Shown here piece by piece: positions 12,901-47,875 of a stretch of DNA of 64,000 nucleotides. The position numbers and the translations under genes were made by a program. The stretch comes from Puniceicoccales bacterium. Lineage in GTDB: Bacteria; Verrucomicrobiota; Verrucomicrobiia; Opitutales; JAIRLM01. The DNA is taken from positions 890-64,889 of the forward strand of contig JAIRWT010000001.1 of the NCBI GenBank assembly GCA_031268795.1. Reading direction: 5' to 3'. The notes beneath the pieces are model-generated. The model was not told the origin of the DNA. It made no database searches and worked only from the letters and a program-made list of their open reading frames with translations. Within the stretch, counting starts at the first letter, position 1. Each line of letters opens with the position of its first letter.

Positions 12901-13872
12901 GCTCGCGATAAAAATAGAAGATAATCTTTTGAAGAAATCAAAGGTTTCTTTATCCTCAGCAGCTGAACATGATAGGCATACATTCAAAAAGCCAATAAGT
13001 ACTTCCCGATCCTCCGGCGGCACATTTGCATGTTCGCCCGATATATCGTCCACTTCCGTGCCAAACATGTCTTGAATTTTTTCCTGAAGCTCACTAGGAT
13101 TTAACAAATCAGGCGCTTTGCAACCATGCGCCGCGAAAAAGCTGGAAATAATCCCTTTCGTATGGCCGATTGTTTTGCCGGTAATCGGCAGTCTGCCAAT
13201 TGCAGACGGATTTCCTGCATATATGCGAAAAAATTTCATCAATTGTAATTGAGGTGGTGTATCGACAAAGTCTGCAGATAGTAACTCCTTTGGTACGAGA
13301 ATTGGCTTTTCATTGCCTGCCGCAAGAACTCCGGGAGCAGGATGCAGCATTTGGCTCTTCAAATGGGCCGCTAAACTGCGAAGATCCGGATCGCTGGGTA
13401 CGCTTGGTGCACTAATTTGCGTATGCTCAGCAACATTGGTCGTTTTAACCGTTGGCCGCTCTCTTACTATCCTGTCGTGTATGCCTTCAAAGGCATCGGT
13501 TGCTGCTTTCGCAAAAAGTGTCAACTGTCTTATTTCTATTCTTTTGAAGAAAATACTATAAAAAAATGAAAAAATCGGATTTTGCTTCCCTCGTACGGCC
13601 GCAGCGGATGCAGCGATTTCCTGCCGTGCATTTTTTATAAGCTTTCTGCTTGCATCCTCGTACTTGGAGAGCTCACTCTTATCTACCGTTTCTAATGTGC
13701 TGGCAAAATCTTTTACCGAACTTGTCATTTTAGAAACCGCAGCGCGATAGGCGTGAATTAATTTCAATCCCGTCACGCCGCTTTCTGACACATCTCGTAA
13801 TTGTTGGACCTCTTTTTTCACAGCAAACAGTGCAGCTTCATACGATCCTGTACGTGATCCGGTAGCATCCAT
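3919..13872 (-). CDS. Giant 3,317-aa protein with a central P-loop/DEVH NTPase (helicase-like) core; function unknown
   Basis: One uninterrupted 9,954-nt ORF. Walker A QLMMGGGKTAIV (GGGKT = nt 8593-8607). Walker B/DExH-like MICDEVHANLDP (DEVH = nt 8134-8145), about 150 aa downstream. Coiled-coil-looking E/K/R/L/Q-rich region at about nt 8800-10000. Acidic AE/TE tract at about nt 6005-6075. Antisense ORFs are short and low-complexity. Confidence 0.85.
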   Translation of the reverse strand: MDATGSRTGSYEAALFAVKKEVQQLRDVSESGVTGLKLIHAYRAAVSKMTSSVKDFASTLETVDKSELSKYEDASRKLIKNARQEIAASAAAVRGKQNPIFSFFYSIFFKRIEIRQLTLFAKAATDAFEGIHDRIVRERPTVKTTNVAEHTQISAPSVPSDPDLRSLAAHLKSQMLHPAPGVLAAGNEKPILVPKELLSADFVDTPPQLQLMKFFRIYAGNPSAIGRLPITGKTIGHTKGIISSFFAAHGCKAPDLLNPSELQEKIQDMFGTEVDDISGEHANVPPEDREVLIGFLNVCLSCSAAEDKETFDFFKRLSSIFIASINAAEQPGVREELSKLAVGNVDVSSSADVDFAEIDKFFDEQESPKGSEQQYAIKNCPDMRFMQYVRNENMALFADAIIDEFSTYATNPKAMQYMRAVITKIAPEAKVTVLAKLAAFADTLANDLQADQANASKKNQLRALTELLLANDADDLPDLSDSLCSINDAIVGSWNHCANIDPNEIAMVVQIAALKERKGMHLSEGERKNIALLTANPRYGFCQKVHNTRSVQAPNAKFDPIQNCNFRCYYGSENSLIPISVIESISAIETPAEFITPDDMQTAFGGGLRLELNADNGVFLCEGALPVESKQLPPLMMQLDKITPNIALSLNRRSEFPNQQTQCIDGKVTVDLVTGKATHADAGEFMRYSFILGEGACVVGEPTALNDLKRNFVAFLDKDNVIRFYTSANFREPAFLMRDGKFYSAKNPEMELVLNGQGTQCKDLPSECLIGRNADGIPVEAVVLNRVILEKGKAPCRISFRQSGDAGKRRLELYSDGEKTDCFLMSQNILSGYAANAGDGGFIIASDKKPLELTLPGRPSALFSPRCEQVPVTITLPEKEDDDIIFGRVDSEGNASCDEQEVIRLGDLIAPNATDSKDDFFSGPYSKNRIRSLITYFRNARAARGGDPNRLYGQDDREALKGRVHTVLGWCASTIHMDIAPGARSLLNELILDMALVYPSAVAPMWRNSAGGGQYHASFKDFFTDDASTYHSQAATLFIDAYKSVQFENPESPVLNDFIEFLNIASTHYTSETTGWIHNSTVSLFRKKEQQRLNAKKAAKTTEDIRAHLPKVPKRSRRQRISPGQLRAGRIPSQQDSSRKQLGVDVRMERFSNPSDPDNPIDVASAGASALERLGITEATRPADASIAESAAEEEASTDLAGRLGAYRRGEAAAAAAHADACWDAIGKRFVGIDATNPDTFAIADAEAETLRSDLFAAEESLKSDERSISSVLDKANEIIENILLSVTPQVKLLRISGALPMPTSEKLQMLLFRCYNSTDNCFDRDAFWRAYAREFDPYITARQVDDLIDALLDQLVCKTALSACRNRLRTFEDFKAKIQLLIAPPTTESAESRLAKLTELKAKQNIISQARTISTSYCIHEKACRTAVAEQDSLARNCQAERQEIEAQLQINERTLQKNEKSIREMMSKGFIVSRGGPSESFECVESENLEKVQSGIKACEDKIAAALVSKRAAHGDTAILEDGDIMPADNMFRGALNMLGVGRITYKQVRFELAKLRESARELDAMKLASVELIKEFETLQAERAELTRIMDVSTESYHTKANEFAATIRNARSEIETYRIHFATLRTQNASLLQDLELNPDDIQEASDGELFFPAIETLSTSIGRDIEGLKSDTRGKILAVRESFGAFIKSMAAARAYDAFDRRNFSTLWFEAQTEFRLRPDQVKLISDIFEKSKRGIATQEEVQLVFQLMMGGGKTAIVLSELARLLAGAGKIPFFANHEAQHATMTKDLRKLQEVRFGQAVIEINMPLSGLATLAGANNILSQLKRAKETGACVTIPSTLLRGISLERRSAIIGLRDARIARDEPGISKDDRIGIRGKIRKLEERLNKFEEVLGFIKENCVMICDEVHANLDPTFSVNIPNGKRQTFSSVQAECNSRFFQRIDGNDEIKSAIRSGTGISEDSLSHIAMGMLDDFGIPADDANRELYRRFICCDDAPDANRAKDDAEFRVQWDLARARLAGENPELLERLCMLRGLITTERYASRKSYLGNYGFRIIEGKLVKVVPYSSANTPSSGDYAHPIELSVYTNHAYMLSHTPNFGDGTPLDIKFRDFIQKAIQKPDSPERKYLELYMETFAERAEELKNSASPQLGEKLIKDAYSKLVAIFAKGAGTSDRSSLVCALTRDDFMFYPGMLEGTGYNQMHLTKTVIADSGTPWNLDILSAGFQRPGNSMLDTSTNMQICSKWASDMKAGNSVVFNGKGDGSTVAQMLDAQAKAHGNDSQATCALIDVAGAFKHLRNREVARQTRDYCASKSNSPFKGFAFFEVDPNTGKSDWWVMPRDPNSPPIKLSNNQEGTVLKEAGITREELFVYFDQNKTTGVDFKLPQSGRGLVTADPGKTLISNFLQGVLRLRGFWDGQSADVCQVGQATDGMTELEGAEEHEAQFLQCFESVEANQDSLLNARKVGAVTAQIIEKKRILLELRQEQYYKENKWAIDHGNSPFVPSYWLRRFEALQKECADACLTDARFDPVGWYGATKNEADAYGHIVEMRKKTAASLVGCGLSRKFLRETEFIMETASHQLAGVKMVIGGAAVDVGAEVETQAEAETETEAEQQMEVSSQNDSASALKSLGDSLVDRHRRAAGHVESRSGGVFMKKLLSGFLGELTVGETFRVGKLALLLGNLMSGDDFSDCRERCCTPLSKRDSPTTGGEAEKVPGKFFDTVRKDALGFGVPPEKIINEMDALAKAVTRTLKTPKHEVEENENPEKESVLEWFQGIPTEEKIRYFGEDESAQMAWINAAIALGYSKEQITKTFGCFEKCSNAIDKLIESAKADHPDMADDEETPSDERLTSFKDLQTDPENVGRGLLEKVQSNAYGLLNGIIGLLNIYLEDGQEASSITSAAGGVFNLIGGTAQAFLSGGQDLAGLVVLLPTMLRSITEKKYVTRLDAVRKQKILKWIEKDLAKLLGNFFVPQEAQAMITVFQVACRLTLPPDASEAAKEMLAKAILESCRNPKTGMYDMKKASEFADIIVGGFADFIKTVAEFDIPGASDEYKFLVDGLASVLRIAKGPLFDPLLAAAQDVKKYLVQIGGQRADALVVCPTAIGDPEDEDESVEKKTCTPTTGSMSINEWLTEQSGQTAGFTGRSVNIFPSEFCASEQFMHAFEGKNDPSSNYSRSAQRMLVYKDSAGKMKGMLLTPSEVDDYGEMIMDGALKDARIIDTRGKPDDRFAPEDNPMADVSEGDLKRFALYMQIYNGTINVEALNADGNIRTLFLGITHDEPQRDALIGFLGSKTQDSSWVSSYIGSAAGA

Positions 13873-14014: not shown

Positions 14015-14563
14015 TCAACCAACATACCAATAACTTGCATTAATTTCAAAGGAATCAATGGAGCCTTCAAGGCCCACGTAGGAAGTTGACAGATAAATTG
14101 GAATTGTCCGCGAAAAAAGGCTAAATAAGGATGTATCGAGAACGATGTGACCGGCGGGTAATTTGAAGGACAGAAGAATTTCACCATTTGGATATGAACC
14201 CTCCTGGAAACTGAGATTGAGAGCGTAGGTATCAACGTCTCGATAAACTTGCGCCGGATTAATTTGAAAAAATGTGCCGATGGATGTGGTCCGGTCAATG
14301 GATTCATAGGCTAACAGTGGATAATTGACTAATCGCTCCACCGGTTTCGTGTCACAGTTGGCCGTATAGGCATTGGCATAGGTACCGAATCCACCAATGG
14401 AGTATGAATAGCTGATGGATAGGGATCGCAGCATCCAAAAAATGGTGGCGATCTCCTGCGGACTCATATCTGGAAGAAGCTCTTCACCGATAGCCGGTTG
14501 CGTGGGAATTGGGTGCGGCAATCCGGATGGATTGACGGCGACGAGGAAAGAATCGGCATTCAT
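14015..14563 (-). CDS. Phage tail-associated hypothetical protein (182 aa)
   Basis: Last ORF of the block. Its ATG overlaps the upstream stop (ATGA at 14560-14563). No motif recognised. Confidence 0.55.
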   Translation of the reverse strand: MNADSFLVAVNPSGLPHPIPTQPAIGEELLPDMSPQEIATIFWMLRSLSISYSYSIGGFGTYANAYTANCDTKPVERLVNYPLLAYESIDRTTSIGTFFQINPAQVYRDVDTYALNLSFQEGSYPNGEILLSFKLPAGHIVLDTSLFSLFSRTIPIYLSTSYVGLEGSIDSFEINASYWYVG

Positions 14564-16320
14564 AATTCATCCCCGCTCAACGCGTAGGGTTGAGAGGCCA
14601 GAATTAGCCGTTTTTTTAAAATTCCATTTTCGCAGACATCCTCTTCGCGCACCCGAAGGACAAGCCCGGTGAGACCGATTTGGCGTGCATCCAAAACAAT
14701 TTGGCGCGTGCCATCCATTACGTCGGCGAGGAGCAAATGGCTGTAGGTCGTTGTCCCGGTGTGCGTGTTTTCTCCGGGCGTCTCCCGCGCCTGTTCAATA
14801 TGCTCATCGGACCCTTCCCCATTTGTACGAATATACGTGGATCTCGGCGCCTCTCGCCGCCGATTAACGCGGCTGAGTTGAATTAAATCTTTCATGCCCA
14901 AATGCTTTGCCGAGCCGAAGCGCAGGCGCACGGTGCCACTGTCCAAATGCTCGATGCACTCCTGAATTTGTGCATCCATGGTTCCCCATAAAATATTTCC
15001 TCCGGTGAGATTTAGCCGCACGCCCATTGGCACGGATGCAATCTCTTCACCTAAAAGTTGCAAAGTTCCCTCAAAGGTTAGATTGCTAAAACTTTCATAA
15101 ATTGCCCGCGCTAAGCCGATTGGGCTCTCCTCCGCGTCGGTAAAGCTGGAAAGTCGTGCATAGGTCTGACTAGTAGCATCGGTGGCTTTAATTTTCACAG
15201 CCACCGTCTGCTGGGCCACGCCGGTTGCGCCATCTTCATATGCCAGTGTTGCTCGTACAACATCCGACTCAACGGCAACACTCATCCAATCGGCAACGCC
15301 GCCGCTGCGCAATTCCCGCGGTAGCGCGGAGTCTCGACCATGGGAAAGAATGGTGATGGCACTCGGATCCAATGTAGCCAGGGCAGGCAAATGCCCTTGC
15401 CACCAGGAGGCATTTCCTGGGTCAACCTCATCTGCCACAATGGATTGGGAAACATACTGACTCCTGGTGCCGGCAAGTTCCACGGTAAGTACGAGGATTT
15501 GTGGTTGCAATTCGGAAATATTCGTCGGATAGCGGTCCGTTTCAAGGGTTCTCCACGTGCGCCCGCTAACGGAATGCACCCGTTCGTATTTTATGGCAAC
15601 GCCACGCAGCATAAGGTCGTAGCGCGGTGAGATGGAAATGGAATTGAGCGAAGAATCCACCGCGTAGACAAGCGACGGCATGTCTCGGCGTCGTGCAATG
15701 TGCAAGGTTGGTGAAGTCGTTCCGTAATCAAACCAAATTATTGCATCCGGGATCCACCGCAGAATGCGTTGAATGGCCTCGGCACAGCTCAAATCCTTGC
15801 ATTCGTCAAAGGGCACCGTTTGTGGGAAATTTATTTCTCCAATGCAAATGGGAACCGCACAGATCAGGGCATAATTAAAAATGTCCATCAATTGATTGCC
15901 GATGCTAAGGACCTCCCCCTCCTCCGACTGCCCAAGAATGATGTGGCTTTTGTATACGCTGGTTATGGGCGAGTTGGGATCATTTGGGTCGGCGGCAATG
16001 GCCCACGGTTGTTGATAAATAGTTGTTTCCAAGTACCACCAAGGTCCGCTTACCTTATAGTACTTGGATTCATCGGAACCATCACCAAAGGACGGAACTT
16101 CCGTTACTACACCATGGAACCACCGCGATCCATCGCAATATACCTGAATTGGGGCGAGTGGTGCAAAAATGGGCCCATCGGTAAGCGCTTCCGGAGCAGT
16201 GTGGCGAAAAGTTAGCACATCACGCCCCTGATTAATCCGATGGCGGCGGGTATCGCCAATTCCCCACCGGGCAAATGTTTGTGTAACTCCATCATAGGTC
16301 AGTGTCCATTCCATGGTCAT
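14560..16320 (-). CDS. Phage tail hub / distal-tail-like protein (586 aa)
   Basis: Assigned by position after the fibre and by size. The N-terminus MEWTLTYDGVTQTF...RDVLTFRH and a central ...CAEAIQRILRWIPDAIIWFDY resemble gpD/hub-type tail proteins. The call is positional and weak. Confidence 0.5.
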   Translation of the reverse strand: MTMEWTLTYDGVTQTFARWGIGDTRRHRINQGRDVLTFRHTAPEALTDGPIFAPLAPIQVYCDGSRWFHGVVTEVPSFGDGSDESKYYKVSGPWWYLETTIYQQPWAIAADPNDPNSPITSVYKSHIILGQSEEGEVLSIGNQLMDIFNYALICAVPICIGEINFPQTVPFDECKDLSCAEAIQRILRWIPDAIIWFDYGTTSPTLHIARRRDMPSLVYAVDSSLNSISISPRYDLMLRGVAIKYERVHSVSGRTWRTLETDRYPTNISELQPQILVLTVELAGTRSQYVSQSIVADEVDPGNASWWQGHLPALATLDPSAITILSHGRDSALPRELRSGGVADWMSVAVESDVVRATLAYEDGATGVAQQTVAVKIKATDATSQTYARLSSFTDAEESPIGLARAIYESFSNLTFEGTLQLLGEEIASVPMGVRLNLTGGNILWGTMDAQIQECIEHLDSGTVRLRFGSAKHLGMKDLIQLSRVNRRREAPRSTYIRTNGEGSDEHIEQARETPGENTHTGTTTYSHLLLADVMDGTRQIVLDARQIGLTGLVLRVREEDVCENGILKKRLILASQPYALSGDEL

Positions 16321-16448
16321 GCCTCACTGCGCAGGGATTGAATCTGTAATTCCAATTCACCGATCTTTGTTTCCAATTCTTCTAGGCGTCGTACAAGTTC
16401 AGATAATAGTTCCGATTGCTCCATCGGGAGGGAAATGATTGCTTCCAT
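16317..16448 (-). CDS. Small coiled-coil ORF (43 aa), absent from the supplied ORF track
   Basis: Hand translation: MEAIISLPMEQSELLSELVRRLEELETKIGELELQIQSLRSEA*. Its TGA overlaps the ATG of the 586-aa ORF (ATGA at 16317-16320). It starts 9 nt after the fibre stop. Confidence 0.4.
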   Translation of the reverse strand: MEAIISLPMEQSELLSELVRRLEELETKIGELELQIQSLRSEA

Positions 16449-16457
16449 AAAATTTCC

Positions 16458-18125
16458 TTACCAGAGTGGGACGGTGAATCCGTAAAATACTCGAAAAAGA
16501 GCCGATGGGGAATCGGCGGTGGCCGTGCGTGTAAGTAGGGCGGAGTGGATGGTTGGGGATGTCACATCCGATTTAGTTGGCGTCGAAGGAAATGCCGTTG
16601 GTGTGGATTCGTTTGCCGCATAAGAGCATGCGGGCGTTGCCAAAAATTGCAGAGGAAAAATAATATCCTGAATCACAATTTGGCCTTGCAAAACCGCACC
16701 TCTGAATGTTGCAAAAATACGTTGGTATCGATCACCAAGTGCCCGTTGATCCTCCGCGAGAGTTGTCATAACAAATGGTTGTTCCGAAGCCCCCGGGCCG
16801 ATGGCCGGCCGATAAATGTAAAATCCATAATCATCGGGAATTGCAGACCCGCTAGCGTAGGGGGTGTGTATGAGGCGTAGACAGATTTGAACCATATTTT
16901 CCGGAACCTGAAAAGTAAAAGAGTAGCGCTGATAAACATCCGCGGGGATGTCGTAAATTGCATCCGCCGTATGGATTATACTGCTTTGTACCACAAAGTT
17001 ACCACCGTTATTAATCTTAGTAAAAACGATGGATTGGCTGGTTCCGGTAACGGAAAATTTGATGCCATTGGGCGCCGGGCCGGGAAATCCTACGCCAGCT
17101 TTTAGATCCAATGAAAATGTAACTTCTTTGCCTCGCAGTGGATAAGTTTCCAATGGCGTAAATGGGCGAAAGATGCGTATTTCCTGCGTGGACGTGTTAC
17201 CGACGGGCCGGGCTACATGCATGCAATTTAGGCCTAATGCATTTTCAACCATTTCAATGGTGCTAATCAGCGGATGGGAGGCATCAGCGATCTGCTGATA
17301 GCCTACCCAACCGTCGGAAAGTGGAATCATGGTGAGGTTTGCGAAAATCGCCAATGTCCCGTTGGTATTCAGACGAAATGCTCCATTACCAAGATGATTC
17401 GAAGATCCTCCACCGATGGGAATGTCGGCGATGGCTGCGTCCACATAGGTTTTCACGCTCCATTGGGTTGGAACATCAACGACGGAGTCCGATGCCATGT
17501 CTCCCTCATTGAGAACACCATAAAGCGAAGCCACTCCAAGCCGCAGATTGTCCCGCGCTACGGCAACATTCGATAGATCCAGCAGGTTTTGATTGCGTTT
17601 TACAAAGAGGGCATCGCATTGATCGCGATTATAGAAATGAGCCTCCGGTTCCGGCGGTATGTTGTCGATGCCACCGGAAGATTCGCGAATTGAAATCCTT
17701 CCTGCGCAGAGGGTTATTATCTTCGCCGTGTTATCCGCGGTTTCCGCCCAAATAACCAGCCAGGCATCCATAGCGGCTATGGACGATTCATCGGCGGTAA
17801 ACGTGACAACCGCCTGCTGTTGTGTTCCATTTTCCCAAGTTTCTTCGCTAACGCTGTCGTCGAAACTGATCGAATCCGCTTCTCCACGCATAAGAGGTAA
17901 AACAGATACATCGGGAGCCGTATCTTCCGGTCCCATTGGTTTGATGTCCAAAATGATACGCGCAATGTTATCCAATGTTTGGAGTTTTCTACGGTTGAAA
18001 ACGGCCAGTTGAAATTGTAAATCATTGCCTTTCCAAAAGATGGGCGTGCGTCCGGTGCGCACGTCCCGCGGTGCGTCAAAATTGCTAACATCGCAGGCAA
18101 TGCGGATGGTTGCGATTGTGGCCAT
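16458..18125 (-). CDS. Phage tail fibre / receptor-binding protein
   Basis: NQNLLDLSNVAVARDNLRLGVAS matches the recurrent tail-fibre motif (NLSDL..A.AR.NLGLG). The C-terminal half is beta-rich. ATG at 18125 is preferred over GTG at 18131. Confidence 0.6.
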   Translation of the reverse strand: MATIATIRIACDVSNFDAPRDVRTGRTPIFWKGNDLQFQLAVFNRRKLQTLDNIARIILDIKPMGPEDTAPDVSVLPLMRGEADSISFDDSVSEETWENGTQQQAVVTFTADESSIAAMDAWLVIWAETADNTAKIITLCAGRISIRESSGGIDNIPPEPEAHFYNRDQCDALFVKRNQNLLDLSNVAVARDNLRLGVASLYGVLNEGDMASDSVVDVPTQWSVKTYVDAAIADIPIGGGSSNHLGNGAFRLNTNGTLAIFANLTMIPLSDGWVGYQQIADASHPLISTIEMVENALGLNCMHVARPVGNTSTQEIRIFRPFTPLETYPLRGKEVTFSLDLKAGVGFPGPAPNGIKFSVTGTSQSIVFTKINNGGNFVVQSSIIHTADAIYDIPADVYQRYSFTFQVPENMVQICLRLIHTPYASGSAIPDDYGFYIYRPAIGPGASEQPFVMTTLAEDQRALGDRYQRIFATFRGAVLQGQIVIQDIIFPLQFLATPACSYAANESTPTAFPSTPTKSDVTSPTIHSALLTRTATADSPSALFRVFYGFTVPLW

Positions 18126-18127
18126 AA

Positions 18128-18538
18128 TCACTGCTCCTCCTGAGGTATAGCAATGAGCGCGCCACCAACAATTTCATAGTGATGTACAGTCGCAATGCCT
18201 TCCTGTGATCCGCGAATGCGGCGCATGGTACTATCGCCCAGGATATAGGACGGAGGCGAATCCCCCTCACCGACGATGCGGAAATTCCCAATCGCACCGG
18301 TAAGAATGGCCGCATGTGTAAGCAGAAATTCGGAACTTCGTTCCACGGATGCATGTTTCCGTCGCAGCGAAAATTGCAAATTCGTGGTTCGATTTTTGCG
18401 ATCAATGGGCTTTGCCACCGCAGCCCGCAGGGCCGTGGCAATTTGAACGATTCCTGCCGTTTCCAAAATGAGGTCAAACGGTTCCTCATCAGCGTCTTGT
18501 CCGCCAGCCAGGCAGTAGTTACCGATGAAAAATTTCAT
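18128..18538 (-). CDS. Phage neck/tail structural protein (136 aa)
   Basis: Assigned by position between the connector genes and the fibre. A 3-nt gap separates it from the upstream ORF. No motif recognised. Confidence 0.45.
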   Translation of the reverse strand: MKFFIGNYCLAGGQDADEEPFDLILETAGIVQIATALRAAVAKPIDRKNRTTNLQFSLRRKHASVERSSEFLLTHAAILTGAIGNFRIVGEGDSPPSYILGDSTMRRIRGSQEGIATVHHYEIVGGALIAIPQEEQ

Positions 18539-18541
18539 AAA

Positions 18542-19018
18542 TTATTTCTCCTTTCCACCGTTCCAGGGGAACGGCATTTCAAATTCGAAGGTGAGTAAAA
18601 TTTCCATTCGCATATCCGTGGTAAAACTTTCATTTATTTTCCACGGTTCCTTAAGTTTCGGCATCAATGCGCCGGCCGTTGGACCACACTGAATCCGCCG
18701 ACCGGTAAGCAGGGAATGAATAAATTCGGCAACGCCCAAGGCGCCGCCCGTCGCTACATCACTAAAAGCATTTTCTACCACGAGAATGCGCACATTTATA
18801 ATAGCATCGCATGGAACCGGCCAATTTTGGCGAAACTCAACTGGTATCGGCGGAAGGACAATCACGCAAAGGTTGGTTTGCTGATGCACGTTAATATCTA
18901 GTACTCCCCGCGTATCACTGTGATGATAAAGAAAGACACTCATTCCCGATAACTCCTGGCGATCGCGTAATATTCCAAAAATAACTTCCTGGAGCTCTTC
19001 TAAGTTGCTGTTAATCAT
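18542..19018 (-). CDS. Phage head-tail adaptor/completion-like protein (158 aa)
   Basis: Assigned by position downstream of the capsid/connector genes. Tightly spaced with its neighbours. Confidence 0.45.
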   Translation of the reverse strand: MINSNLEELQEVIFGILRDRQELSGMSVFLYHHSDTRGVLDINVHQQTNLCVIVLPPIPVEFRQNWPVPCDAIINVRILVVENAFSDVATGGALGVAEFIHSLLTGRRIQCGPTAGALMPKLKEPWKINESFTTDMRMEILLTFEFEMPFPWNGGKEK

Positions 19019-19033
19019 GGCCTTAACTCCATT

Positions 19034-19525
19034 TCACAAGCCGGAAAGGGCCGACGCCGTCACTTGTCGCCGTCGGACATGGAGGTGTATCATGGATGAA
19101 AAATTGCCATACTCACCAACTTCCGCCGGATGTCGGGGAGGGCTGACTCGAAAGTCCCCATTGGCGATGGCGTACAGCTGTTCCCTTGCCACATCCGCCG
19201 CCTTCCGCTGCTCCTGTGATAGTTGCAATAGCGGAATCCGGCCTTGGAGTGCTTCTAAAGCTAGCGCACAGGCGGTGGGTTGTAATTCGGCTGGGATCAA
19301 GCGCTGATCATCACTCATCCGATTTTTCCCATTGCTCCCGATGGCCTGCCGTACCCGGCGGGTCACATCGGCGATCAGCTTTGGAAGCGGATCACTTTCC
19401 CCGGCACCCAACACCACCGTTCGCAATAGGTGAATTTGCCGCGCCATCAGATAAGTTTCCAAATGCGTAGGCGTTAATTGCACCCAGTCGTTTACTTTCA
19501 TGTTCTCAAATTTATTATTTTTCAT
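19034..19525 (-). CDS. Phage head-tail connector-like protein
   Basis: First ORF after the major capsid gene. The start is ambiguous (19597, 19546 or 19525); 19525 (MKNNKF...) avoids overlapping the capsid gene. Confidence 0.45.
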   Translation of the reverse strand: MKNNKFENMKVNDWVQLTPTHLETYLMARQIHLLRTVVLGAGESDPLPKLIADVTRRVRQAIGSNGKNRMSDDQRLIPAELQPTACALALEALQGRIPLLQLSQEQRKAADVAREQLYAIANGDFRVSPPRHPAEVGEYGNFSSMIHLHVRRRQVTASALSGL

Positions 19526-19538
19526 GAAATAAATGATT

Positions 19539-20513
19539 TCATTCATTGGAGCCGGCACTGACGGAGAGCCACTTGATCCCGCTCTCCGATGTGACAATAA
19601 TGTTGCTGTAATGCTCCACGGTTATGTCGGTAAATTTGGAGTGTTCCTCCAGGTAAACGCGGAAATTGCTACCGTCGGTTGGTGTCACGAAACGCTTAAT
19701 ATTAGCCGGCTCATCCTTAATGATATCATTCTGCGTATGGAAAAGGTATACATCATTGCCAACTATTTGCGCTTTGCCGCTGGATGAATTTTGGTAGCGA
19801 GCGCTGAAAACGCGAACTTCATCCACAAAGAGTTTGCGGGCAAAATCACCCATGGAAAGCGTCGCCGCCCGCTGTGCGGCCGCCGTTGATTGCATGTCGT
19901 ATACATCAGAACGCAAATCCCACACGCTTTCACCGAAAATAATCCGATTTGGACGGATGCCGGTAATATCCGCTGCATTGGATAGTTCCGCACGAATATC
20001 CGAATCCGGATTATTGGACCCATCCGTTCCGCCCCAAACCTTTGGAATGGGCGTAGTTGATGAATTGAGCGCGGTAATAGCCCGGCGTAATTCATTACGA
20101 TAAAGCCGTCGAAGTAGTAACTGTACATAACGCTCACGCCAATCATCACCGACCACGTCCTCATGATCCACGCGAATGGTAAGCCCTTTGTTAAACGTCT
20201 TAGCCATCACGGATGTGCCAGTGAAATCCACGGTTTTAAATGCGGACCCGATGGCGCGCACATCGTCATTTTCCGATAGAAATGCTTGCGCATTATCCGC
20301 TTTTTTAAATTCAAAGCGTTTGCCCACATGAATCACCGGAGCGATAAAATTGAGCAAATCCTCAATATTCTCCGGATCTTTCCAGCCAACGGTAAAGGCC
20401 GTAAGTAGCTCCGAAAAATTAGCGCTGATAAATCTAGATTCGTTGGCCGCGCAAACCACACCTTTTTCATTGTTTTTTATGTCCGGCGGTAAAATTTCAA
20501 TTAATTCTCTCAT
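19539..20513 (-). CDS. Phage major capsid protein (lambda gpE / Mu gpT-like by position and size)
   Basis: 324 aa, directly after the protease and decoration genes. The sequence ...FTVGWKDPENIEDLLNFIAPV...KTFNKGLTIRVDHEDV... is consistent with the capsid E-like family. Confidence 0.7.
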   Translation of the reverse strand: MRELIEILPPDIKNNEKGVVCAANESRFISANFSELLTAFTVGWKDPENIEDLLNFIAPVIHVGKRFEFKKADNAQAFLSENDDVRAIGSAFKTVDFTGTSVMAKTFNKGLTIRVDHEDVVGDDWRERYVQLLLRRLYRNELRRAITALNSSTTPIPKVWGGTDGSNNPDSDIRAELSNAADITGIRPNRIIFGESVWDLRSDVYDMQSTAAAQRAATLSMGDFARKLFVDEVRVFSARYQNSSSGKAQIVGNDVYLFHTQNDIIKDEPANIKRFVTPTDGSNFRVYLEEHSKFTDITVEHYSNIIVTSESGIKWLSVSAGSNE

Positions 20514-20578
20514 AGTGTTTTAGCCTTATTTATGTTGCCCTTTGGTGGGCTAGGCGGGCATCACAGTTATCAACCTTT

Positions 20579-21016
20579 TCAATTTGTTGAGCCGGTTGTA
20601 ATAACAATGTTTGAAGGAAGACCCGTGAGCACTTCCACCACCTCTCCCGCCATGGTTGCCGTTGTGAGTGCAATACCAACAACGCGATAGGTTCCAGATT
20701 CAGATGGTAAGGGAATAATTTTCCCATTAGCCGTTCCTACCACAAAGGTTCCGGAGCTGATGGGATCTGCTGCGCTAATTAGGACGGTTGATCCACTTCC
20801 TAATAGTTGCACATTAATCGGATCATCGGCTGCTTCCGCTTCGTCGGTCACAACCCCAATTGGCAATTCACCAGCTGCCGCCGGATGTACCGTGTTACCC
20901 TGTAACGCCACAAGCACATGCGCCATTTCAATGGGCTCGGCCGCCAGGAAGGTGATATTCCCCTCGTGCGTACCCTCGGCCACATTTGCAAAAATGATTT
21001 GTTTTTCCTTTTTCAT
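20579..21016 (-). CDS. Head decoration / DUF2190-like protein
   Basis: 145 aa, Gly/Ala/Val-rich and beta-type, located between the protease and capsid genes as in lambda D/E-type heads. Confidence 0.45.
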   Translation of the reverse strand: MKKEKQIIFANVAEGTHEGNITFLAAEPIEMAHVLVALQGNTVHPAAAGELPIGVVTDEAEAADDPINVQLLGSGSTVLISAADPISSGTFVVGTANGKIIPLPSESGTYRVVGIALTTATMAGEVVEVLTGLPSNIVITTGSTN

Positions 21017-21065
21017 AGTCTTATTCCTTAACTGTAATTAAATTAATTCCCCGTATGGGAGAAAG

Positions 21066-21959
21066 TTAGCCTTCAAACCAAAAGGGGTTGGTCCGCTTCA
21101 CGTTGCACCAGGCGGTGGCAAATGATTCGCATTCCTTTTCCATGCGCTCGCGCACGAGCGTCAACACACGATGTTTTTTCATTTCGGTTGGAAGACAGCA
21201 TCGCCGATCGAGTGATTGGGTGATGCTTTGCCGGCGCATGACGCTTTCCGGCATCCTGGCGCAATTCCCAACGATGGGTCCACCCTGCTCTGGCATTCGT
21301 AGCAGGGCCACGTCTGGCATATTCACGCCGCTGGGCAGCGATGTCCGTTCGCGCGGATTATCGTCCGGAGAAATATCACTAACGATTTTCTCATCCGGCA
21401 TAATTTCCGCCATTTCTTCGAGCATATCTTCTTGATTGGCAATGGCTTCAACGTTCATATTGGGCGTATTGGTAAGCCCAATGGAGAGTAGCTGCCTGGG
21501 CGTAAAACTTCCATTACCCAGCGGAACCATTTCCCAGCGAGGGGAGAGAAATTTGTAATAGGCATTTTCAAGAAGTTCCCCACCCGCCCTGGACCATTTT
21601 GGGTAAATCCAAAGGCCATTATCGCGCGCTTCGATAAACTTCACCCAGCCGTAGGCGCGAGTATCATCATGGCCAACCTGACCGCGAAAGGCCGGATCAT
21701 CCGGATGCCCAATATAAATGGGAACACCGCGAAATCGACGCGCAAGCCGCTGTCGGAGCGATGAAAATCGTCTGGCCATTTGTTTGCACGCGGAAGCATC
21801 TACAATTTGCATCCCTAGCCGGTGCTGATAGTCACCGTAATCCACTAACTTAATCCATCCGCCACAACCATCGTCTCCTACGGCATTCGCGCCAGCTAGG
21901 ATCATTGTTTCGCAAGTTATTTCTTTTTCATTCATAGTACACCTCTCATTTCCGGTCAT
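21066..21959 (-). CDS. Mu gpI-like prohead protease/scaffold
   Basis: ...IYIGHPDDPAFRG...DTRAYGWVKFIEARDNGLWIYPKWSRAGGELLENAYYKFLSPRWE matches my recollection of the Mu-like prophage I protease family. ATG at 21959 overlaps the portal stop (ATGA at 21956-21959). Confidence 0.65.
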   Translation of the reverse strand: MTGNERCTMNEKEITCETMILAGANAVGDDGCGGWIKLVDYGDYQHRLGMQIVDASACKQMARRFSSLRQRLARRFRGVPIYIGHPDDPAFRGQVGHDDTRAYGWVKFIEARDNGLWIYPKWSRAGGELLENAYYKFLSPRWEMVPLGNGSFTPRQLLSIGLTNTPNMNVEAIANQEDMLEEMAEIMPDEKIVSDISPDDNPRERTSLPSGVNMPDVALLRMPEQGGPIVGNCARMPESVMRRQSITQSLDRRCCLPTEMKKHRVLTLVRERMEKECESFATAWCNVKRTNPFWFEG

Positions 21960-23152
21960 GATTTTGTGAAAATGCGCACACCAAAGTGTTCGCACAGATC
22001 ATTCGCAGGAATTTGCACGCCCAGTTTCGCAAGCCTTTCATACAACTCCAAATCCCATAGAAAATTATCACTTTGCGTAGATTGCAGGGATAGGTACGCC
22101 TTCACTGGCGCATCACCAAAAAGGTAATTGAGCACGTAGCGATCAACTTGCTCATTAAGGACTTCAGAAATTATCGCCGCGTCGTCCTGCTCCAAAAGGT
22201 TTTGCCCACCGGCTTGCATGGATGCGCCAACGCCGTTTCCTCGTGACATGGTTGACAGATCGGATCCACACCAAAGTGCTGCCATTGCCCTATCCATGCG
22301 GTCCACCAGTGCCGGATAGGGAAGTACCCCACGGGAAGTGAGGTCAATGGCCTGCAGATCGCTGCCAGTGGACATGAGCGCATTAAATTCTGCCCCAAAG
22401 GCCTCCACCGCTTGTTTAGCCATTTCCCACTGTGGCGTTCCTGGCACAGCATCTGTCACGCCCTTAACGCCTGGCATGCCATTGCGGTCACAGTAAATTA
22501 ACCAATCGCGGAGTGGCAGATGCTTGAATAGATAAGCAATGGAACAGGCTTCCATAAGGCCATCTCCAACGGTTACAAGCCAGGCGCCCTCCTCCAGCGA
22601 AATTCCCTCCCGCGCCATATCACCCGGTAAAAAGCGCAACAATCCCGTATAATTTTCGAAGTACCAAAGGGGAACGAAGCGAAACTCAGCGGAAATTAAT
22701 GCCCTTGCACAGCCATCGGTAAAGCAATTGCCGTGAATCTGATAAACAATTTCATGGACCGCATATTTCTTCCCAACGGCATCCATCATCTGTTTTACCA
22801 GCAACGCAAAGGATCCACGTTCATTGCGATCGATGGCGCCCGTGCAGCGGAGGTTATTGTAAAAAAATCGCAGTGCTTCCTGCTGTTGCCGAGCCTCTGC
22901 AGAATCATCCGTTGTCAGGATGGTCCATGGCAGACGCGCTACGGCCTTTTTGCGTTTGGCCGCCACCCCTTTCAGCAAATCATCCCTCCGTTCAATGGCG
23001 TCCCAAAGCAATGCCGCCGGCCACAGTTCACCCCGATGAAAGGCGTCCAATTGCCGCGTGAGCGTCTCCGCCGTGAGCAACCGGATCGGATTAAAATCCT
23101 GTCGCCGACTCCGGTTCTGGCATAGTGTTTGTATTTCTGATTTTATTTTCAT
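21956..23152 (-). CDS. Phage portal protein (Mu gp29 / DUF935-like)
   Basis: 398 aa immediately after TerL. The N-terminal ...LDAFHRGELWPAALLWDAIERRDDLLKGVAAKRKKAV... is typical of DUF935 portals. Confidence 0.7.
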   Translation of the reverse strand: MKIKSEIQTLCQNRSRRQDFNPIRLLTAETLTRQLDAFHRGELWPAALLWDAIERRDDLLKGVAAKRKKAVARLPWTILTTDDSAEARQQQEALRFFYNNLRCTGAIDRNERGSFALLVKQMMDAVGKKYAVHEIVYQIHGNCFTDGCARALISAEFRFVPLWYFENYTGLLRFLPGDMAREGISLEEGAWLVTVGDGLMEACSIAYLFKHLPLRDWLIYCDRNGMPGVKGVTDAVPGTPQWEMAKQAVEAFGAEFNALMSTGSDLQAIDLTSRGVLPYPALVDRMDRAMAALWCGSDLSTMSRGNGVGASMQAGGQNLLEQDDAAIISEVLNEQVDRYVLNYLFGDAPVKAYLSLQSTQSDNFLWDLELYERLAKLGVQIPANDLCEHFGVRIFTKS

Positions 23153-23198
23153 CGGTTGTGTGCATGGAAATTAATGACGCCAATATTTAATGTGCCAT

Positions 23199-24611
23199 TT
23201 ATAGAAAAAAAGAAGATCGTTGCGGCCGTTGAATTATCTGAAACGCGCCGCCGCCCGCCTTGGGTCGTTTGGCCTCACCACCGTGAAAGGCGTGAATGGC
23301 GAGCGCCAGTGCCCAAAAGCGATCGGCGTGACCATTTCGTCCACGATCCGCAGCGAATCGTAAATTTCCCGTGAGCGTTACTTCCCTACGAACGGCATGC
23401 AAATCGGCACGAATGTTGTCATCATTCGGAATTCGAACCACTCGCCGCTCGAAGAAAGAGCGCAACAGATAAGCCAATGATTCTTTGACTTCCGCCGTAA
23501 ATGTTATGCCTTCCACCCGACCCGCGCCGAATTTGACAACCGCCCGCTCGGCAAACTGCCGGCCCATTCCCGTTTGATCAATGCACACCCTCCGTAGATG
23601 CGGTATGCGCAGTAATTCGTGCAAAACACCCTCCTGGGTTGCAAATGTTTGTTGCGCAAGGCATTCCACCAATCGCGTGTGCATAACATCGCCCACCAGT
23701 TCCAATAACCAGAAGACGGTCAAATCGCGCTCTCGGCCAAGATCCACTCCAAGGTAGTAATCCCCATGCGGTAAAGTTTCACCCTTCGGCAGATAAGGTA
23801 AGGCAATTTGCCATTGGTCATCCGCTAAATACTCGCACGCGCTGATCATTTCCGATGATAAGAATGCCGTGCGATCGTCCAGCGGCTGACACATATATTC
23901 CTGTTGAAAAGTGGCCTCATCCGGGCATGTGGTGCGGATGAAATCGAAATATTGCGCTGCATCCATAAATTGTCGCGGATCATTTGCCGGAAGTTTAGCT
24001 TTTAATTTTGCTAAAAATCCTTGCTCCAAGGCGTCTTGCAACGTTACCCGATGCAGGGAAAATTTTTTGGGATTTCCTTCGTAGCGCGCTTCCTGGATGA
24101 GTTGATTGAAGAAATTAAATGATCCCCGGTGCGTGGAAAGAATCTCCAGTTGTCCTCCCCAGGTAATCCCTGGCAATGCAATGGAATAGAGAAGCTTTGG
24201 GTCTCCGTGGAGGGCAAATTCGTCTAAAACTCGATTTCCTCGCTTCCCAGCTTGAGCATCTGGGTTTGAAGAAAGAGAGTGTACGGTCGTATTGTTAGCG
24301 AAGGTAATGGCCATGGCCGATGTGCGTGCCTTGGAAATTAATACCCGACGCTGTATTTTCGTAGCAGCTCCATCAAATAATGAGGCAAATGTACAACAGT
24401 CGGCTAGGAATAGTTTAGCCTGCATTTCATCCCGCGACGACACCCAACTGTCTCGGCCGTAACACTTGATAACATGTTGGCGTACGAGGTGATATGCCGT
24501 TGCCCAGGACATGCCAACTTGTCGGGATTTTTCCATAATTTTTAGTCGCGCCCCGTCCAGAATCCATCGGCGTTGATAGGGGAGAAAAAAAGGTATAGCT
24601 CTTTGTTTCAT
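23199..24611 (-). CDS. Phage terminase large subunit
   Basis: FFLPYQRRWILDGARLKIMEKSRQVGMSWATAY (Terminase_6-type ATPase N-terminus), with a C-terminal nuclease-like half. ATG at 24611 overlaps the upstream stop (ATGA at 24608-24611). Confidence 0.85.
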   Translation of the reverse strand: MKQRAIPFFLPYQRRWILDGARLKIMEKSRQVGMSWATAYHLVRQHVIKCYGRDSWVSSRDEMQAKLFLADCCTFASLFDGAATKIQRRVLISKARTSAMAITFANNTTVHSLSSNPDAQAGKRGNRVLDEFALHGDPKLLYSIALPGITWGGQLEILSTHRGSFNFFNQLIQEARYEGNPKKFSLHRVTLQDALEQGFLAKLKAKLPANDPRQFMDAAQYFDFIRTTCPDEATFQQEYMCQPLDDRTAFLSSEMISACEYLADDQWQIALPYLPKGETLPHGDYYLGVDLGRERDLTVFWLLELVGDVMHTRLVECLAQQTFATQEGVLHELLRIPHLRRVCIDQTGMGRQFAERAVVKFGAGRVEGITFTAEVKESLAYLLRSFFERRVVRIPNDDNIRADLHAVRREVTLTGNLRFAADRGRNGHADRFWALALAIHAFHGGEAKRPKAGGGAFQIIQRPQRSSFFL

Positions 24612-24982
24612 AGCAATTTCAATTGCTTCTCCAATTGGCGAATGGTTGACATATTCAACCCCTCCCGCGGACAATCTACGCCAACGCCATCTTTCAATTG
24701 CCCACGTAGGGTAAGCACCTGCTGGCTGCTGGCTAAAAGTCTTTGCATAATGGTGGCGATGGTATTTAGCTCGGACAGATCTTGCGTAACAAAAATTTTA
24801 TCCAAAAGGCCACTTAGCATTTGACCGATTGAAGCGTCCGCCAGATCGCTATGAGAAGTGTCCGGAGCTTTTTTCCTTGTGCGTATACTCCTATGCGAAG
24901 ACACCAAAATTTTGCCATCAGTCGTTGCATCCAAAACGTCATCCATGCCAGTTGCAACATCGCTGGGAGTTGAGGATCTCAT
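24608..24982 (-). CDS. Hypothetical protein, small-terminase candidate by position only
   Basis: 124 aa immediately upstream of TerL and translationally coupled to it. No motif recognised. Confidence 0.35.
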   Translation of the reverse strand: MRSSTPSDVATGMDDVLDATTDGKILVSSHRSIRTRKKAPDTSHSDLADASIGQMLSGLLDKIFVTQDLSELNTIATIMQRLLASSQQVLTLRGQLKDGVGVDCPREGLNMSTIRQLEKQLKLL

Positions 24983-25278
24983 CTGCGTATACCACCGGCT
25001 ATTTTTTGTGAATATTCAGAATTTGGAAGAGTGTGCCCATTGGCATTCACGAGTGTGTACAATCCATGAATACGCCTTTGCAGCAGAGTAACTTGTTGCC
25101 GCAAAATGCAAATTTCTAAATTTTGGCGGCAGGCAATTTTTTGGCTTTCACGTAAAAAAGAATTATGCAAGCCCACGGCTGTAAAATAGAACCCCAAAAA
25201 TGTAATTCCAATGAGGGCCGTGCGACAGATAAGATCGAAGAACATCCTCGATCGAAGCCATCTACCAAGGGCTTTCAT
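24979..25278 (-). CDS. Small membrane-anchored coiled-coil protein
   Basis: MKALGRWLRSRMFFDLICRTALIGITFLGFYFTAV (one TM) followed by a Leu/Gln-rich helix. ATGA overlaps at both ends (25275-25278 and 24979-24982). Confidence 0.4.
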   Translation of the reverse strand: MKALGRWLRSRMFFDLICRTALIGITFLGFYFTAVGLHNSFLRESQKIACRQNLEICILRQQVTLLQRRIHGLYTLVNANGHTLPNSEYSQKIAGGIRR

Positions 25279-25517
25279 GCGGCACCTCCAATGGAAGTGC
25301 CTCCCATTGGGTACGACCACGCATTATTGACACTGGAATAAATTCCAGCAATTGCATCGATGATTTTAATAGCATACACACTCACAAGGGAACATTGAAA
25401 TAGTGTAAAAATATTATCACCGTCGATGCTTGACAACGATGGAGGCGGCCAAGTACCATCACCCGGTGTGGGTGTTAATTTGTCGGTAATAGCGTATCTG
25501 GCAGATTGGTTGTTCAT
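25275..25517 (-). CDS. Small hypothetical protein, first ORF of the phage-like operon
   Basis: 80 aa with one hydrophobic segment (IFTLFQCSLVSVYAIKIIDAIAGIY). AAAGGAAC lies about 8 nt upstream of the ATG. Confidence 0.35.
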   Translation of the reverse strand: MNNQSARYAITDKLTPTPGDGTWPPPSLSSIDGDNIFTLFQCSLVSVYAIKIIDAIAGIYSSVNNAWSYPMGGTSIGGAA

Positions 25518-25787
25518 GGGCTAATGTTCCTTTGGGCTCCCCGATTGGAAACCCGCATTTAGTTTATCACGGAACTGCTAAATGCAAAATATACGGTTGG
25601 TTGCATTGGCTTCGTTGTGTTCGTTGGATTTGTTGGGCATAAAATAGGATGAAATTTTATCAAAAAGACACATAATGGCGCGGCCAATAAATTGAACCCA
25701 ATCCGAATCGCGACGTATCCGGCGACCTTTCCGCCACATTACATTTTTCTAATTGCATTTAAAAAATGCGAACCATAAACTCATTTT

Positions 25788-26282
25788 ATGGATTTGAATT
25801 CGCTTATGGAGGGCGTAAGTCGACGCATGAGTCTTCCGCTCAAGCTTGACCCGGAAACTCGGCGGTGCGTATTGCAAGATAAGGAATCCCACCTGGAAAT
25901 TCTCATCGAATTTCCACAGCGTAATACGTCACTGTTCATTTATTCTCCGCTCATGCAACTGCCAAAGGAAATTGACCAGGTGAAATTTTTGGAATCACTC
26001 CTTGAGCTTAACCTCTTTGGGCTACAAACCAACGGGACCACCATCGGCTTCGATCGCAAGCGTGGACACATCGTCTTACACCATTCCGTCCCGGTGGAAT
26101 TTGTCGACGAACAGATTTTCGTAAATGTGCTTACCAATTTTATTGCAACGGCACGAAAAATTTCAACGCGGATAAGTGATCTACAACTGGTTAATCAAAA
26201 GCGCGCCAAGATTGCCAATACACATTATTCTCCGGCGGAAAATGCTAAGCCTCGCCAATCCATGCGAATTGTCCGCATATGA
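25788..26282 (+). CDS. Type III secretion chaperone-like protein (CesT/SycE-like class I architecture)
   Basis: 164 aa. The layout ...LKLDPETRRCVLQDKESHLEILIEFPQRNTSLFIYSPLMQLPKE...LESLLELNLFGLQTNGTTIGFDRKRGHIVLHHSVP...EQIFVNVLTNFIATA follows the class I chaperone pattern, from recollection of SycE/CesT. Confidence 0.5.
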   Translation: MDLNSLMEGVSRRMSLPLKLDPETRRCVLQDKESHLEILIEFPQRNTSLFIYSPLMQLPKEIDQVKFLESLLELNLFGLQTNGTTIGFDRKRGHIVLHHSVPVEFVDEQIFVNVLTNFIATARKISTRISDLQLVNQKRAKIANTHYSPAENAKPRQSMRIVRI

Positions 26283-26331
26283 AGGGATTTTGACCGGAAG
26301 ATGCGGACAAAGCGAAAAAAAGAGGCTGAAA

Positions 26332-47726: not shown

Positions 47727-47875
47727 CTTACTTTGTGGAAGCTTATGTGGTTGGCATTCTCGTGTAAAGATAAAATTAATATGCAAGAATAATATCGCCT
47801 TTTCAAGGATCATATTTTTATGACGGCGACATTTTGAGGCTTCCTCCGCCGAGGTTTTAAAACTTATGTACCGAC

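Follow-up and report, generated by a model that had tools for sequence, protein, structure and literature searches.

To our knowledge, only a handful of independent lineages of gene transfer agents (GTAs) are known, namely those of Alphaproteobacteria, Bartonella, Brachyspira, Desulfovibrio and Methanococcus. Here we analyse a block of phage-like structural genes in a Puniceicoccales bacterium of the Verrucomicrobiota, located on a stretch of 64,000 nucleotides (contig JAIRWT010000001.1 of assembly GCA_031268795.1, positions 890 to 64,889 of the forward strand) that we refer to as the window. The block consists of 15 co-oriented open reading frames (ORFs) on the minus strand, which occupy 14015-25517 (11.5 kb) amid ordinary chromosomal genes. 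We are confident that it is an anciently domesticated chromosomal locus, and with moderate confidence we read it as the vertically inherited gene cluster of a domesticated GTA-like particle (a viriform) of independent, Mu-like origin.

The RcGTA of the Rhodogtaviriformidae (Rhodobacter capsulatus, Caulobacter crescentus) resembles the block in being a chromosomal head-to-tail structural operon of 10-15 kb, in having no replication, integration or lysogeny genes, in being under purifying selection across a large host clade, in having some structural or accessory genes at separate loci, and in a tail that is shorter than that of the phage ancestors (see also PMC11841831 and PMC10883770). The portal and protease of the block are of Mu type (PF06074) and Mu gpI type (PF10123), respectively, which points to an independent origin. 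In RcGTA the portal, protease and capsid are HK97-type, and neither the profile of the major capsid protein (MCP) of the block nor its portal has a sequence match among the solved RcGTA virion chains in the PDB; the two systems share only a fold-level similarity of tube proteins, through the block product g11. RcGTA furthermore keeps a tube, chaperones and a tape measure, whereas the block has none of these, and the host phyla differ. The block thus falls outside the RcGTA-like family.

Mu-like phages have the Portal_Mu family, the Mu gpI-type protease, the gp36-type adaptor and the gp44-like hub in common with the block, and the relative gene order agrees, but the block and its flanks lack transposase A/B, a Mu F-like protein, a sheath, the set of tube, chaperone and tape measure, and genes for lysis or immunity. 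PBSX of Bacillus is a chromosomal, non-propagating phage-like particle that packages host DNA; it keeps a full contractile tail, lysis genes, regulators and a bacteriocin action, whereas the block is without sheath, tube and lysin. Like the block, capsid-forming phage-inducible chromosomal islands (cf-PICIs) combine terminase, portal, protease, capsid and connector genes in a small cassette, but they also have integrase, regulatory and replication genes and borrow the tails of their helpers, whereas the block has none of these genes, encodes its own hub and fibre, and occupies a fixed site within each clade. A candidate GTA operon of 10.5 kb is near-ubiquitous in the genus Faecalibacterium (10.1101/2024.11.15.623857). 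Both it and our block are structural operons of about 10 kb, but the phyla differ, and for the Faecalibacterium operon there is also read-length evidence of host-DNA packaging. The same paper, in which PBSX-type packaging of host DNA is also mentioned, deals with Firmicutes and makes no mention of Verrucomicrobia or Opitutales (10.1101/2024.11.15.623857). Titles and abstracts on gene transfer agents in Verrucomicrobia, Opitut* or Verrucomicrobiota contained no such element, in a search whose coverage mostly excludes subscription journals, and a search on Puniceicoccales and prophages gave nothing relevant.

Distribution, synteny and selection

Exact-sequence lookup of the window MCP gave no record, and tblastn gave no match in the 50,697 phage records of INPHARED. 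A large protein collection holds 1127 homologues; the best 120 of these are 56-90% identical to the window protein, and all those named among them come from Puniceicoccales, Opitutales, Cerasicoccus or Verrucomicrobia. Relatives were found in at least 145 species genomes when one genome per GTDB species was scanned, and the best 80 of the 145 all belong to Opitutia or Verrucomicrobiota, each assembly having a single locus. The carriers span two orders by NCBI taxonomy and comprise metagenome-assembled genomes (MAGs) from termite guts, four cultured species of Cerasicoccus, Ruficoccus, and Opitutales of human and chicken gut, the last including a cultured Puniceicoccaceae isolate. In the cultured Puniceicoccaceae bacterium Marseille-Q1082 the locus (L072) extends from portal to hub. 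Only 16 related contigs are present in IMG/VR. A 50% clustering contains only 428 related clusters in 1.84 billion, and the whole clade contributes about one representative (56% identity) to them.

We judged synteny by tblastn of the 15 window proteins against 98 loci (numbered L001 and onwards) and by independent gene calls. The order TerL, portal, protease, cement, MCP, g9-g15 recurs in most termite-gut and environmental loci by tblastn, and independent gene calls gave an identical architecture for L099 and L102, including an ORF of about 45 aa. Among loci not cut by contig ends, and counting single high-scoring segment pairs, full-length copies were found for MCP in 81/81 loci, TerL in 41/41, portal in 66/68, g14 in 38/39 and g11 in 41/42. 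The ORF families f4 and f13, called in GC-rich genomes, were antisense artefacts of ORF calling and were set aside.

The strength of selection was estimated from the ratio of nonsynonymous to synonymous substitution rates (dN/dS) between the window and its two closest relatives (L003 and L004), which have about 76-78% nucleotide identity to it over the block. The ratio is below 1 for all 15 genes and about 0.03-0.2 for the 12 structural genes from TerL to g15, values that are approximate since dS is near saturation (0.7-1.6 in the block, and 3.4 for the 43-codon g13). TerL (0.03-0.07), portal (0.045) and MCP (0.04) are followed by g10 (0.08-0.12), the hub (0.10-0.12), the fibre (0.12-0.15) and g15 (0.14-0.17), and the three small upstream genes have ratios of 0.19-0.59. 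The block dS matches that of the adjacent host genes shared with L004, which is 1.21 for the CesT gene and 1.49 for gspE. In the gut species the MCP (74-89% identity) matches the host protein PurH (78-92%) in conservation; rank correlations between block identity and PurH identity are positive but weak, over a narrow range. A reading of this DNA made earlier from its letters alone (the sequence-only reading) had taken the block for a domesticated GTA-like particle rather than a decaying prophage, and had proposed orthologous loci and dN/dS as checks: the loci turn out to be syntenic and intact in about 80 relatives and dN/dS is well below 1, so that the synteny, the intactness and the low ratios all support it.

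Families of flanking genes define six host-flank synteny groups, each of which is a clade, or nearly so, in a neighbour-joining tree of MCP and portal. At least 10 gut species have the block bordered by a symporter-galK-galE-UDPGP run on one side and by LysM/TPR-purH on the other, and in marine Puniceicoccales a CorA gene is found upstream. The gut lineages do not have TerS and TerL at the locus. In three gut species TerL is found several kb upstream in inverted orientation, with genes for a 3-keto-disaccharide hydrolase and a beta-helix protein in between; in one, 9 kb separate it from the locus on the downstream side, where genes for a DNA methylase and a CLC channel intervene. Gut Opitutales blocks are also without the fibre gene g12, and in Cerasicoccus the head genes at this locus have host genes directly downstream. 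As the gene set is conserved yet not contiguous, it cannot be a packaged viral genome, a pattern known from GTAs. In one termite-gut clade a ComM-like gene of the Mg-chelatase family (f38; L002 3448-4971, L036 and L038) stands just upstream of the small ORFs and TerL. ComM is a competence protein needed for the uptake of RcGTA DNA, and the adjacency may be a coincidence.

Pfam and PHROG scans of the block and of the flanking ORFs (about 14 kb on the left and 7 kb on the right) gave no match to an integrase, repressor, replication protein, lysin, sheath or tape measure, in agreement with the sequence-only reading, which had seen no non-structural module, tape measure or sheath there. Two flank ORFs, of 214 and 3317 aa, had no informative match in these scans. 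Ten more large ORFs in the window are host genes or encode effector-like proteins, and none is phage-like. Neither the block and flanks nor the rest of the window contains transposase A/B, an immunity region, lysis genes or a full long tail, and we found no att-like direct repeats bracketing the block. A complete prophage sharing these genes, which had been named as an observation that would speak against domestication, neither adjoins the block nor occurs in the rest of the window. By these scans the block is a structural cluster without genes for replication, integration or propagation. Its GC content at third codon positions is 0.479 compared with 0.483 in host genes, and its composition is fully ameliorated to the host. 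Within the synteny groups, the parity of dS, the clades of the capsid tree and the intact loci point to vertical inheritance under purifying selection.

Gene products and phage-like relatives

The 15 minus-strand ORFs (Table 1) are all present at the coordinates given in the sequence-only reading, and so are all six of the ATGA start/stop overlaps that it listed. We add a seventh 4-nt overlap, GTGA, at the g11/g12 junction; the other intergenic gaps within the block are 3-65 nt. Pfam and PHROG gave direct identities for five ORFs and no useful direct match for the other ten, but with family profiles and structure models included, a phage structural identity is assigned to 12 of the 15 products.

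Table 1. Coordinates in the window of the block genes and of the intergenic region upstream of them, with the basis of each assignment.
Feature	Coordinates	Strand	Basis or remark
s1, 80 aa	25275..25517	-	one hydrophobic segment, residues 39-57
s2, 99 aa	24979..25278	-	N-terminal transmembrane (TM) helix (residues 12-30), then coiled coil
s3, candidate small terminase subunit (TerS)	24608..24982	-	TerS family alignment and hidden Markov model (HMM)
TerL, large terminase	23199..24611	-	Terminase_6N and Terminase_6C; phrog_5909 at 1e-39
Portal, Mu gp29 type	21956..23152	-	PF06074 Portal_Mu at 2.5e-57, full model; phrog_113
Head maturation protease, variable C-terminal part	21066..21959	-	PF10123 Mu-like_Pro 1e-11; phrog_328 2.6e-15
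Capsid cement/decoration protein	20579..21016	-	PF09956 Phage_cement_2 1.3e-5; phrog_673 9.5e-14
Major capsid protein (MCP)	19539..20513	-	phrog_1005 'major head protein' 3.6e-11
g9, head-tail adaptor, Mu gp36 (DUF1320) type	19034..19546	-	family match to PF07030
g10, putative neck protein, by position	18542..19018	-	slot between g9 and g11 kept in 45 loci
g11, ring protein, predicted Hcp/tail-tube-superfamily fold	18128..18538	-	AlphaFold2 (AF2) model and Foldseek
g12, tail fibre/receptor-binding protein	16458..18131	-	profile match to solved fibre
g13, 43-aa coiled-coil peptide, translationally coupled to hub gene	16317..16448	-	recurrent ORF
g14, predicted baseplate hub/central spike, gp27/VgrG/Mu gp44 type	14560..16320	-	AF2 model and Foldseek
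g15, 182 aa	14015..14563	-	always 3' of hub, coupled to hub gene
Upstream intergenic region	25518..25787	.	between first block gene and divergent CesT gene; sole sizeable upstream non-coding stretch

The five direct identities bear out the calls made from the letters alone, of TerL, a DUF935-like portal, a Mu-I-like protease, a decoration protein and a major capsid protein. In TerL the residues K28-S-R-Q-x-G33, D130-E131, S159-T160, D290, D345 and D430 are conserved in 47 orthologues, and we take them to be the ATPase and nuclease motifs. The protease is conserved across the clade in its N-terminal half only, and by analogy with Mu gpI we read the gene as a putative fusion of protease and scaffold. 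The MCP profile has a weak match in the PDB to the phage-related protein 3bjq. Of the three small proteins noted upstream, the third can now be placed, as s3 aligns with a family of about 120 aa that is encoded immediately 5' of TerL across the clade, with the C-terminal motif IEEQLKLL in common. An HMM of this family built without s3 matches s3 at E=1.7e-8, and 6 of 20 family members match phrog_426 'terminase small subunit'. The other two, s1 and s2, have no match to a phage family. The locus thus contains a Mu-type head module (PF06074, PF10123 and, via the g9 family, PF07030) together with a gp44-like hub.

What had been described as three connector-size proteins can be refined for the first and the third. 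Ten of 27 g9 family members match PF07030 Phage_Mu_Gp36 (best 2.4e-9), and the g9 profile has a weak match to the solved DUF1320 protein 8rka_B (E=0.22); the true start of g9 may be the ATG at 19501. Profile searches gave no Pfam, PHROG or PDB assignment for g10. For g11 the AF2 model (pLDDT 76.5) has Foldseek matches in the PDB that are nearly all of tube/Hcp type but marginal (E about 1e-3, TM-score about 0.4), and a profile search of PDB sequences gave weak matches only. The tube fold is common to tail terminators and head-tail joining proteins, and in L104, a phage-like relative described below, the g11 homologue is encoded several genes upstream of the tape measure. For these two reasons we take g11, whose modelled fold would also suit a tail tube, to be more likely a ring of the neck or a terminator than a tube that polymerises.

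The suspected fibre is confirmed: the g12 profile matches the solved 'short tail fiber gp92' (9zd7) at 1e-12. The protein has about 175 conserved residues at its N-terminus, then an ARxNLGLG-type motif and a hypervariable C-terminus; its length is about 450-1009 aa across loci, of which the N-terminal part alone is conserved. The guess of a 586-aa hub-like protein was likewise correct. The AF2 model of g14 (pLDDT 87.3, pTM 0.74) matches the spikes of AlgoCIS and of the Anabaena contractile injection system (CIS) at 1e-12, the spike of the Photorhabdus virulence cassette (PVC), Mu gp44, the MuSo2 43-kDa tail protein and VgrG of the type VI secretion system in the PDB, and viral tail and gpP-like proteins in BFVD; a profile search of PDB sequences gave nothing for g14. 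The final product, g15, has no Pfam, PHROG or PDB match; its position is occupied in 18 loci, and the gut-lineage family f18 found at the same position aligns with it.

In the capsid tree, the branches that diverge most deeply belong to IMG/VR contigs of 30-42 kb, in which the terminase and portal genes are larger and numerous additional genes are present. In one of these, L104 (a contig of 32.9 kb), the order is a gp36 adaptor, a g10 homologue, a 310-aa protein of family f20, a g11 homologue, a protein homologous to the N-terminal domain of g12, a Laminin_G protein of 792 aa, four further genes and a tape measure of 913 aa (PF10145), followed directly by a protein of 626 aa with a match to the hub profile at 1.4e-115. 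Genes for proteins of 294 and 204 aa adjoin the tape measure, and we read them, by position only, as major tail protein and chaperone. Two other phage-like contigs encode long proteins rich in Ala, Leu, Glu and Lys that resemble tape measures. For the phage-like contig L092, nothing informative came from scanning its tail region with PHROG. Given the tail gene set of L104, the Opitutia block therefore looks like a reduced long-tailed, Mu-like phage, from which the tape measure, both of the genes that adjoin it and the f20 gene would have been lost. The sequence-only reading had allowed for a minimal podovirus-type cassette as an alternative. This has found no support: a podovirus-type short tail, with adaptor and nozzle or a tail needle, does not agree with the tube-superfamily fold predicted for g11, the gp27/VgrG-like hub g14 and the tape measure that L104 encodes directly upstream of its hub.

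Members of f20 (281-315 aa) are encoded between g10 and g11 in the phage-like contigs, and also in one environmental subclade whose block is in other respects of the reduced form (L087 2010-2855, L088, L091 13226-14158, L092 13511-14458, L085 16775-17722 and L104 9044-9976). They have no Pfam, PHROG or PDB sequence match, and could be a sheath-like or collar protein that was lost in the lineage of the window. The phage-like IMG/VR contig L085 also has two tandem MCP paralogues of 322 and 321 aa (10001-12019).

We find g13 to be a real gene. A coiled-coil ORF of 27-61 aa, with a C-terminal motif resembling [IL]xxL[RK][SN], ends at or overlaps the start of the hub gene in about 27 of 37 loci, and it is also present in the independent gene calls of L099, L102 and L105. 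Its slot is that of the tape measure in L104, and this shared position gives the idea that g13 is a vestigial tape measure; an HMM of 22 g13-like peptides did not match the C-terminus of the 913-aa tape measure of L104.

Neither Pfam nor PHROG gave a match for s1, which is conserved only in the closest relatives L003 and L004 (42-51% identity, dN/dS 0.5-0.6), and a holin-like role for it is speculative. For s2 dN/dS is 0.19-0.31, and ORFs of family f22 in marine relatives have its position and the same architecture of TM helix plus coil, a likeness of architecture only. Conserved small ORFs occur upstream of TerS in many loci (L001 3490-4601, L043, L055, L081-L083, L088); they belong to families f29 (2-3 TM helices), f22 (single-TM coiled coil) and f15/f56 (about 90 aa, winged-helix-like), whose positions are taken by s1 and s2 in the window. 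These families may serve the element in lysis or regulation.

The block is flanked on the left by mraY, rpoN, tRNA-Ala, usp and the 3317-aa ORF, and on the right by genes for a CesT-family chaperone, gspE, gspF, an ABC ATPase, accA and tyrS, which confirms the flanks as first described (giant ORF, usp and tRNA-Ala on one side, a type III secretion chaperone-like ORF and gspEF on the other). The upstream intergenic region is presumed, by position, to hold the promoter or regulatory region of the operon. Promoter consensus scans, this region included, did no better than chance or shuffled sequence, terminator consensus scans no better than shuffled sequence, and an Rfam scan found tRNA only. In the window the CesT gene is thus just 270 nt from the block, whereas in L004 (1379-4703), its closest syntenic relative, two extra ORFs of 602 and 499 aa, without Pfam match, lie in between. 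The 3317-aa ORF (3919-13872, minus strand) shares the strand of the block, with its start 142 nt beyond the block's downstream end, and has a DUF3638 match that is sub-threshold only. We rejected it as a member of the block, as it adjoins the block in none of the other loci, L003 and L004 included; it may encode a large protein that acts as an effector or at the surface. The longest gspE ORF (26176-27714, plus strand) would begin with GTG at 26176 and so have about 100 nt in common with the 3' end of the CesT gene, and its true start is probably an internal ATG near 26329. The CesT-family type III chaperone (25788-26282, plus strand), a protein of 836 aa that contains a ubiquitin C-terminal hydrolase (UCH) domain (45411-47921, minus strand), a 1046-aa leucine-rich-repeat (LRR) protein (55446-58586, plus strand) and a TLC ATP/ADP translocase encoded beside the block in a related MAG (L002 18522-20084) together suggest a host-associated, possibly intracellular lifestyle.

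Alternative explanations

Several observations weigh against reading the block as a vertically inherited, GTA-like locus. The particle, the packaged DNA and its transfer are all deduced from genes, no endolysin or regulator was identified in the block or the scanned flanks, and most of the relatives are MAGs. The absence of TerL or tail genes in Cerasicoccus and the gut species applies to the locus only. A few loci have split portal or protease ORFs, through decay or assembly error, and in one genome of Opitutales rich in insertion sequences (IS; L100/L101, the same as L031, about 8600-11000) nothing is left at the locus but the cement gene, an intact MCP and a fragment of the protease. This remnant is flanked by copies of a DDE_3 transposase, with IS21 and Mu-transposase-like genes nearby, and illustrates how the cluster can be broken up by IS elements. 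When the window is compared with the 'group A' termite MAGs, identity is 67-68% for the MCP but 36-38% for MiaA, so that the MCP is far more conserved than a housekeeping protein, which could be read as vertical or as horizontal inheritance. The dN/dS values are approximate, and there may have been ancient horizontal spread within Opitutia, between deep clades.

The alternative that survives best, although we consider it unlikely, is a domesticated particle with a function other than gene transfer, either a PBSX-like killing bacteriocin that packages host DNA or an agent of interaction with a eukaryotic host. All the evidence for domestication fits it equally well, the tip resembles the membrane-puncturing spike VgrG, a hypervariable fibre C-terminus is expected in receptor arms races, and the window organism and its relatives look host-associated, with genes for CesT, UCH, LRR and TLC proteins. 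On the other hand, conservation is strongest in TerL, portal and capsid (dN/dS 0.03-0.07), which points to selection on DNA encapsidation and not on the tail tip, puncture would have neither a sheath nor a long tube to drive it, and the gut lineages do without the fibre. A tailocin or extracellular contractile injection system was rejected, since the block encodes capsid, portal and terminase and the Pfam and PHROG scans revealed no sheath.

It is less probable still, and in our view improbable, that the block is the structural module of a selfish element, a cf-PICI-type satellite or a split phage that spreads horizontally in Opitutia with the aid of a helper. Its size and its content of terminase, portal, protease, capsid and connectors resemble those of capsid-forming satellites, its chromosomal context varies between clades, and between distant genomes its proteins surpass at least one housekeeping protein in conservation, as could result from recent horizontal spread. 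However, neither integrase, primase/replicase, regulator nor att repeats were found at the window locus, and none was seen among the annotated flanks of the loci of the examined relatives. The host flanks are conserved in each clade and the capsid tree follows the flank groups, dS equals that of the neighbouring host genes, and host genes split the cluster in several lineages. As it also encodes its own hub and fibre, unlike tail-stealing satellites, and has no integrase or replication genes or flanking repeats, we rejected a capsid-forming PICI satellite in particular.

A functionless remnant of a defective prophage, intact by chance, would account for the lack of every non-structural module, for the IS-disrupted copy of one relative and for the few split ORFs, but it is very hard to reconcile with 15 intact ORFs joined by seven 4-nt overlaps, with core genes at full length in 38-81 independent species loci, with dN/dS of 0.03-0.2 at a dS of about 1 or more, where neutral sequence would lose its frames, and with a composition fully ameliorated to the host.

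A proposed particle and its implications

For the GTA-like particle that we favor, we suggest the following course. Domestication would have taken place in an ancestor of Opitutia and been followed by vertical inheritance. The operon would be transcribed as one unit from 25518-25787 and be translationally coupled. Portal, protease/scaffold, capsid and cement would assemble the head, into which TerS and TerL would pump DNA; the Mu gp36-type adaptor would then close the head, and g10 and the tube-fold ring g11 would complete the neck. The tip would be a trimeric gp27/VgrG-like hub-spike with variable fibres, and the tail, lacking tape measure, major tail protein and sheath, would be reduced to neck plus tip. 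The DNA packaged would most likely be that of the host chromosome, taken up by a headful mechanism, since the cluster cannot replicate, excise or mark its own DNA. The fibres may select the recipients, so that DNA is delivered to related cells, and release could depend on lysis functions encoded elsewhere or perhaps on s1 and s2, the sole candidates in the block. More tentatively, and as a proposal that could well prove wrong in its details, we put forward an ancient Mu-like GTA that arose independently and is conserved across Opitutia, whose tail has been cut to neck and hub as major tail protein, chaperone and tape measure were lost, and in which the g13-type peptide of 40-60 aa is a vestige of the tape measure or its functional replacement.

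If this interpretation is right, gene transfer by domesticated viruses would extend to the Planctomycetes-Verrucomicrobia-Chlamydiae (PVC) superphylum, where it would be fixed across a class of Verrucomicrobiota and would include members of the human gut microbiota. The carriers would range from free-living marine species to human and chicken gut commensals and to the host-associated-looking bacteria of termite guts. The particle itself would be unusual, with the tip of a long-tailed phage mounted directly on the neck, and the series of complete blocks, blocks with TerL detached, blocks without fibre and loci with head genes only could show a host in the course of absorbing a virus genome. Should the termite-gut carriers be restricted to their hosts, the retention of the block would suggest selection for recombination in small, isolated populations.

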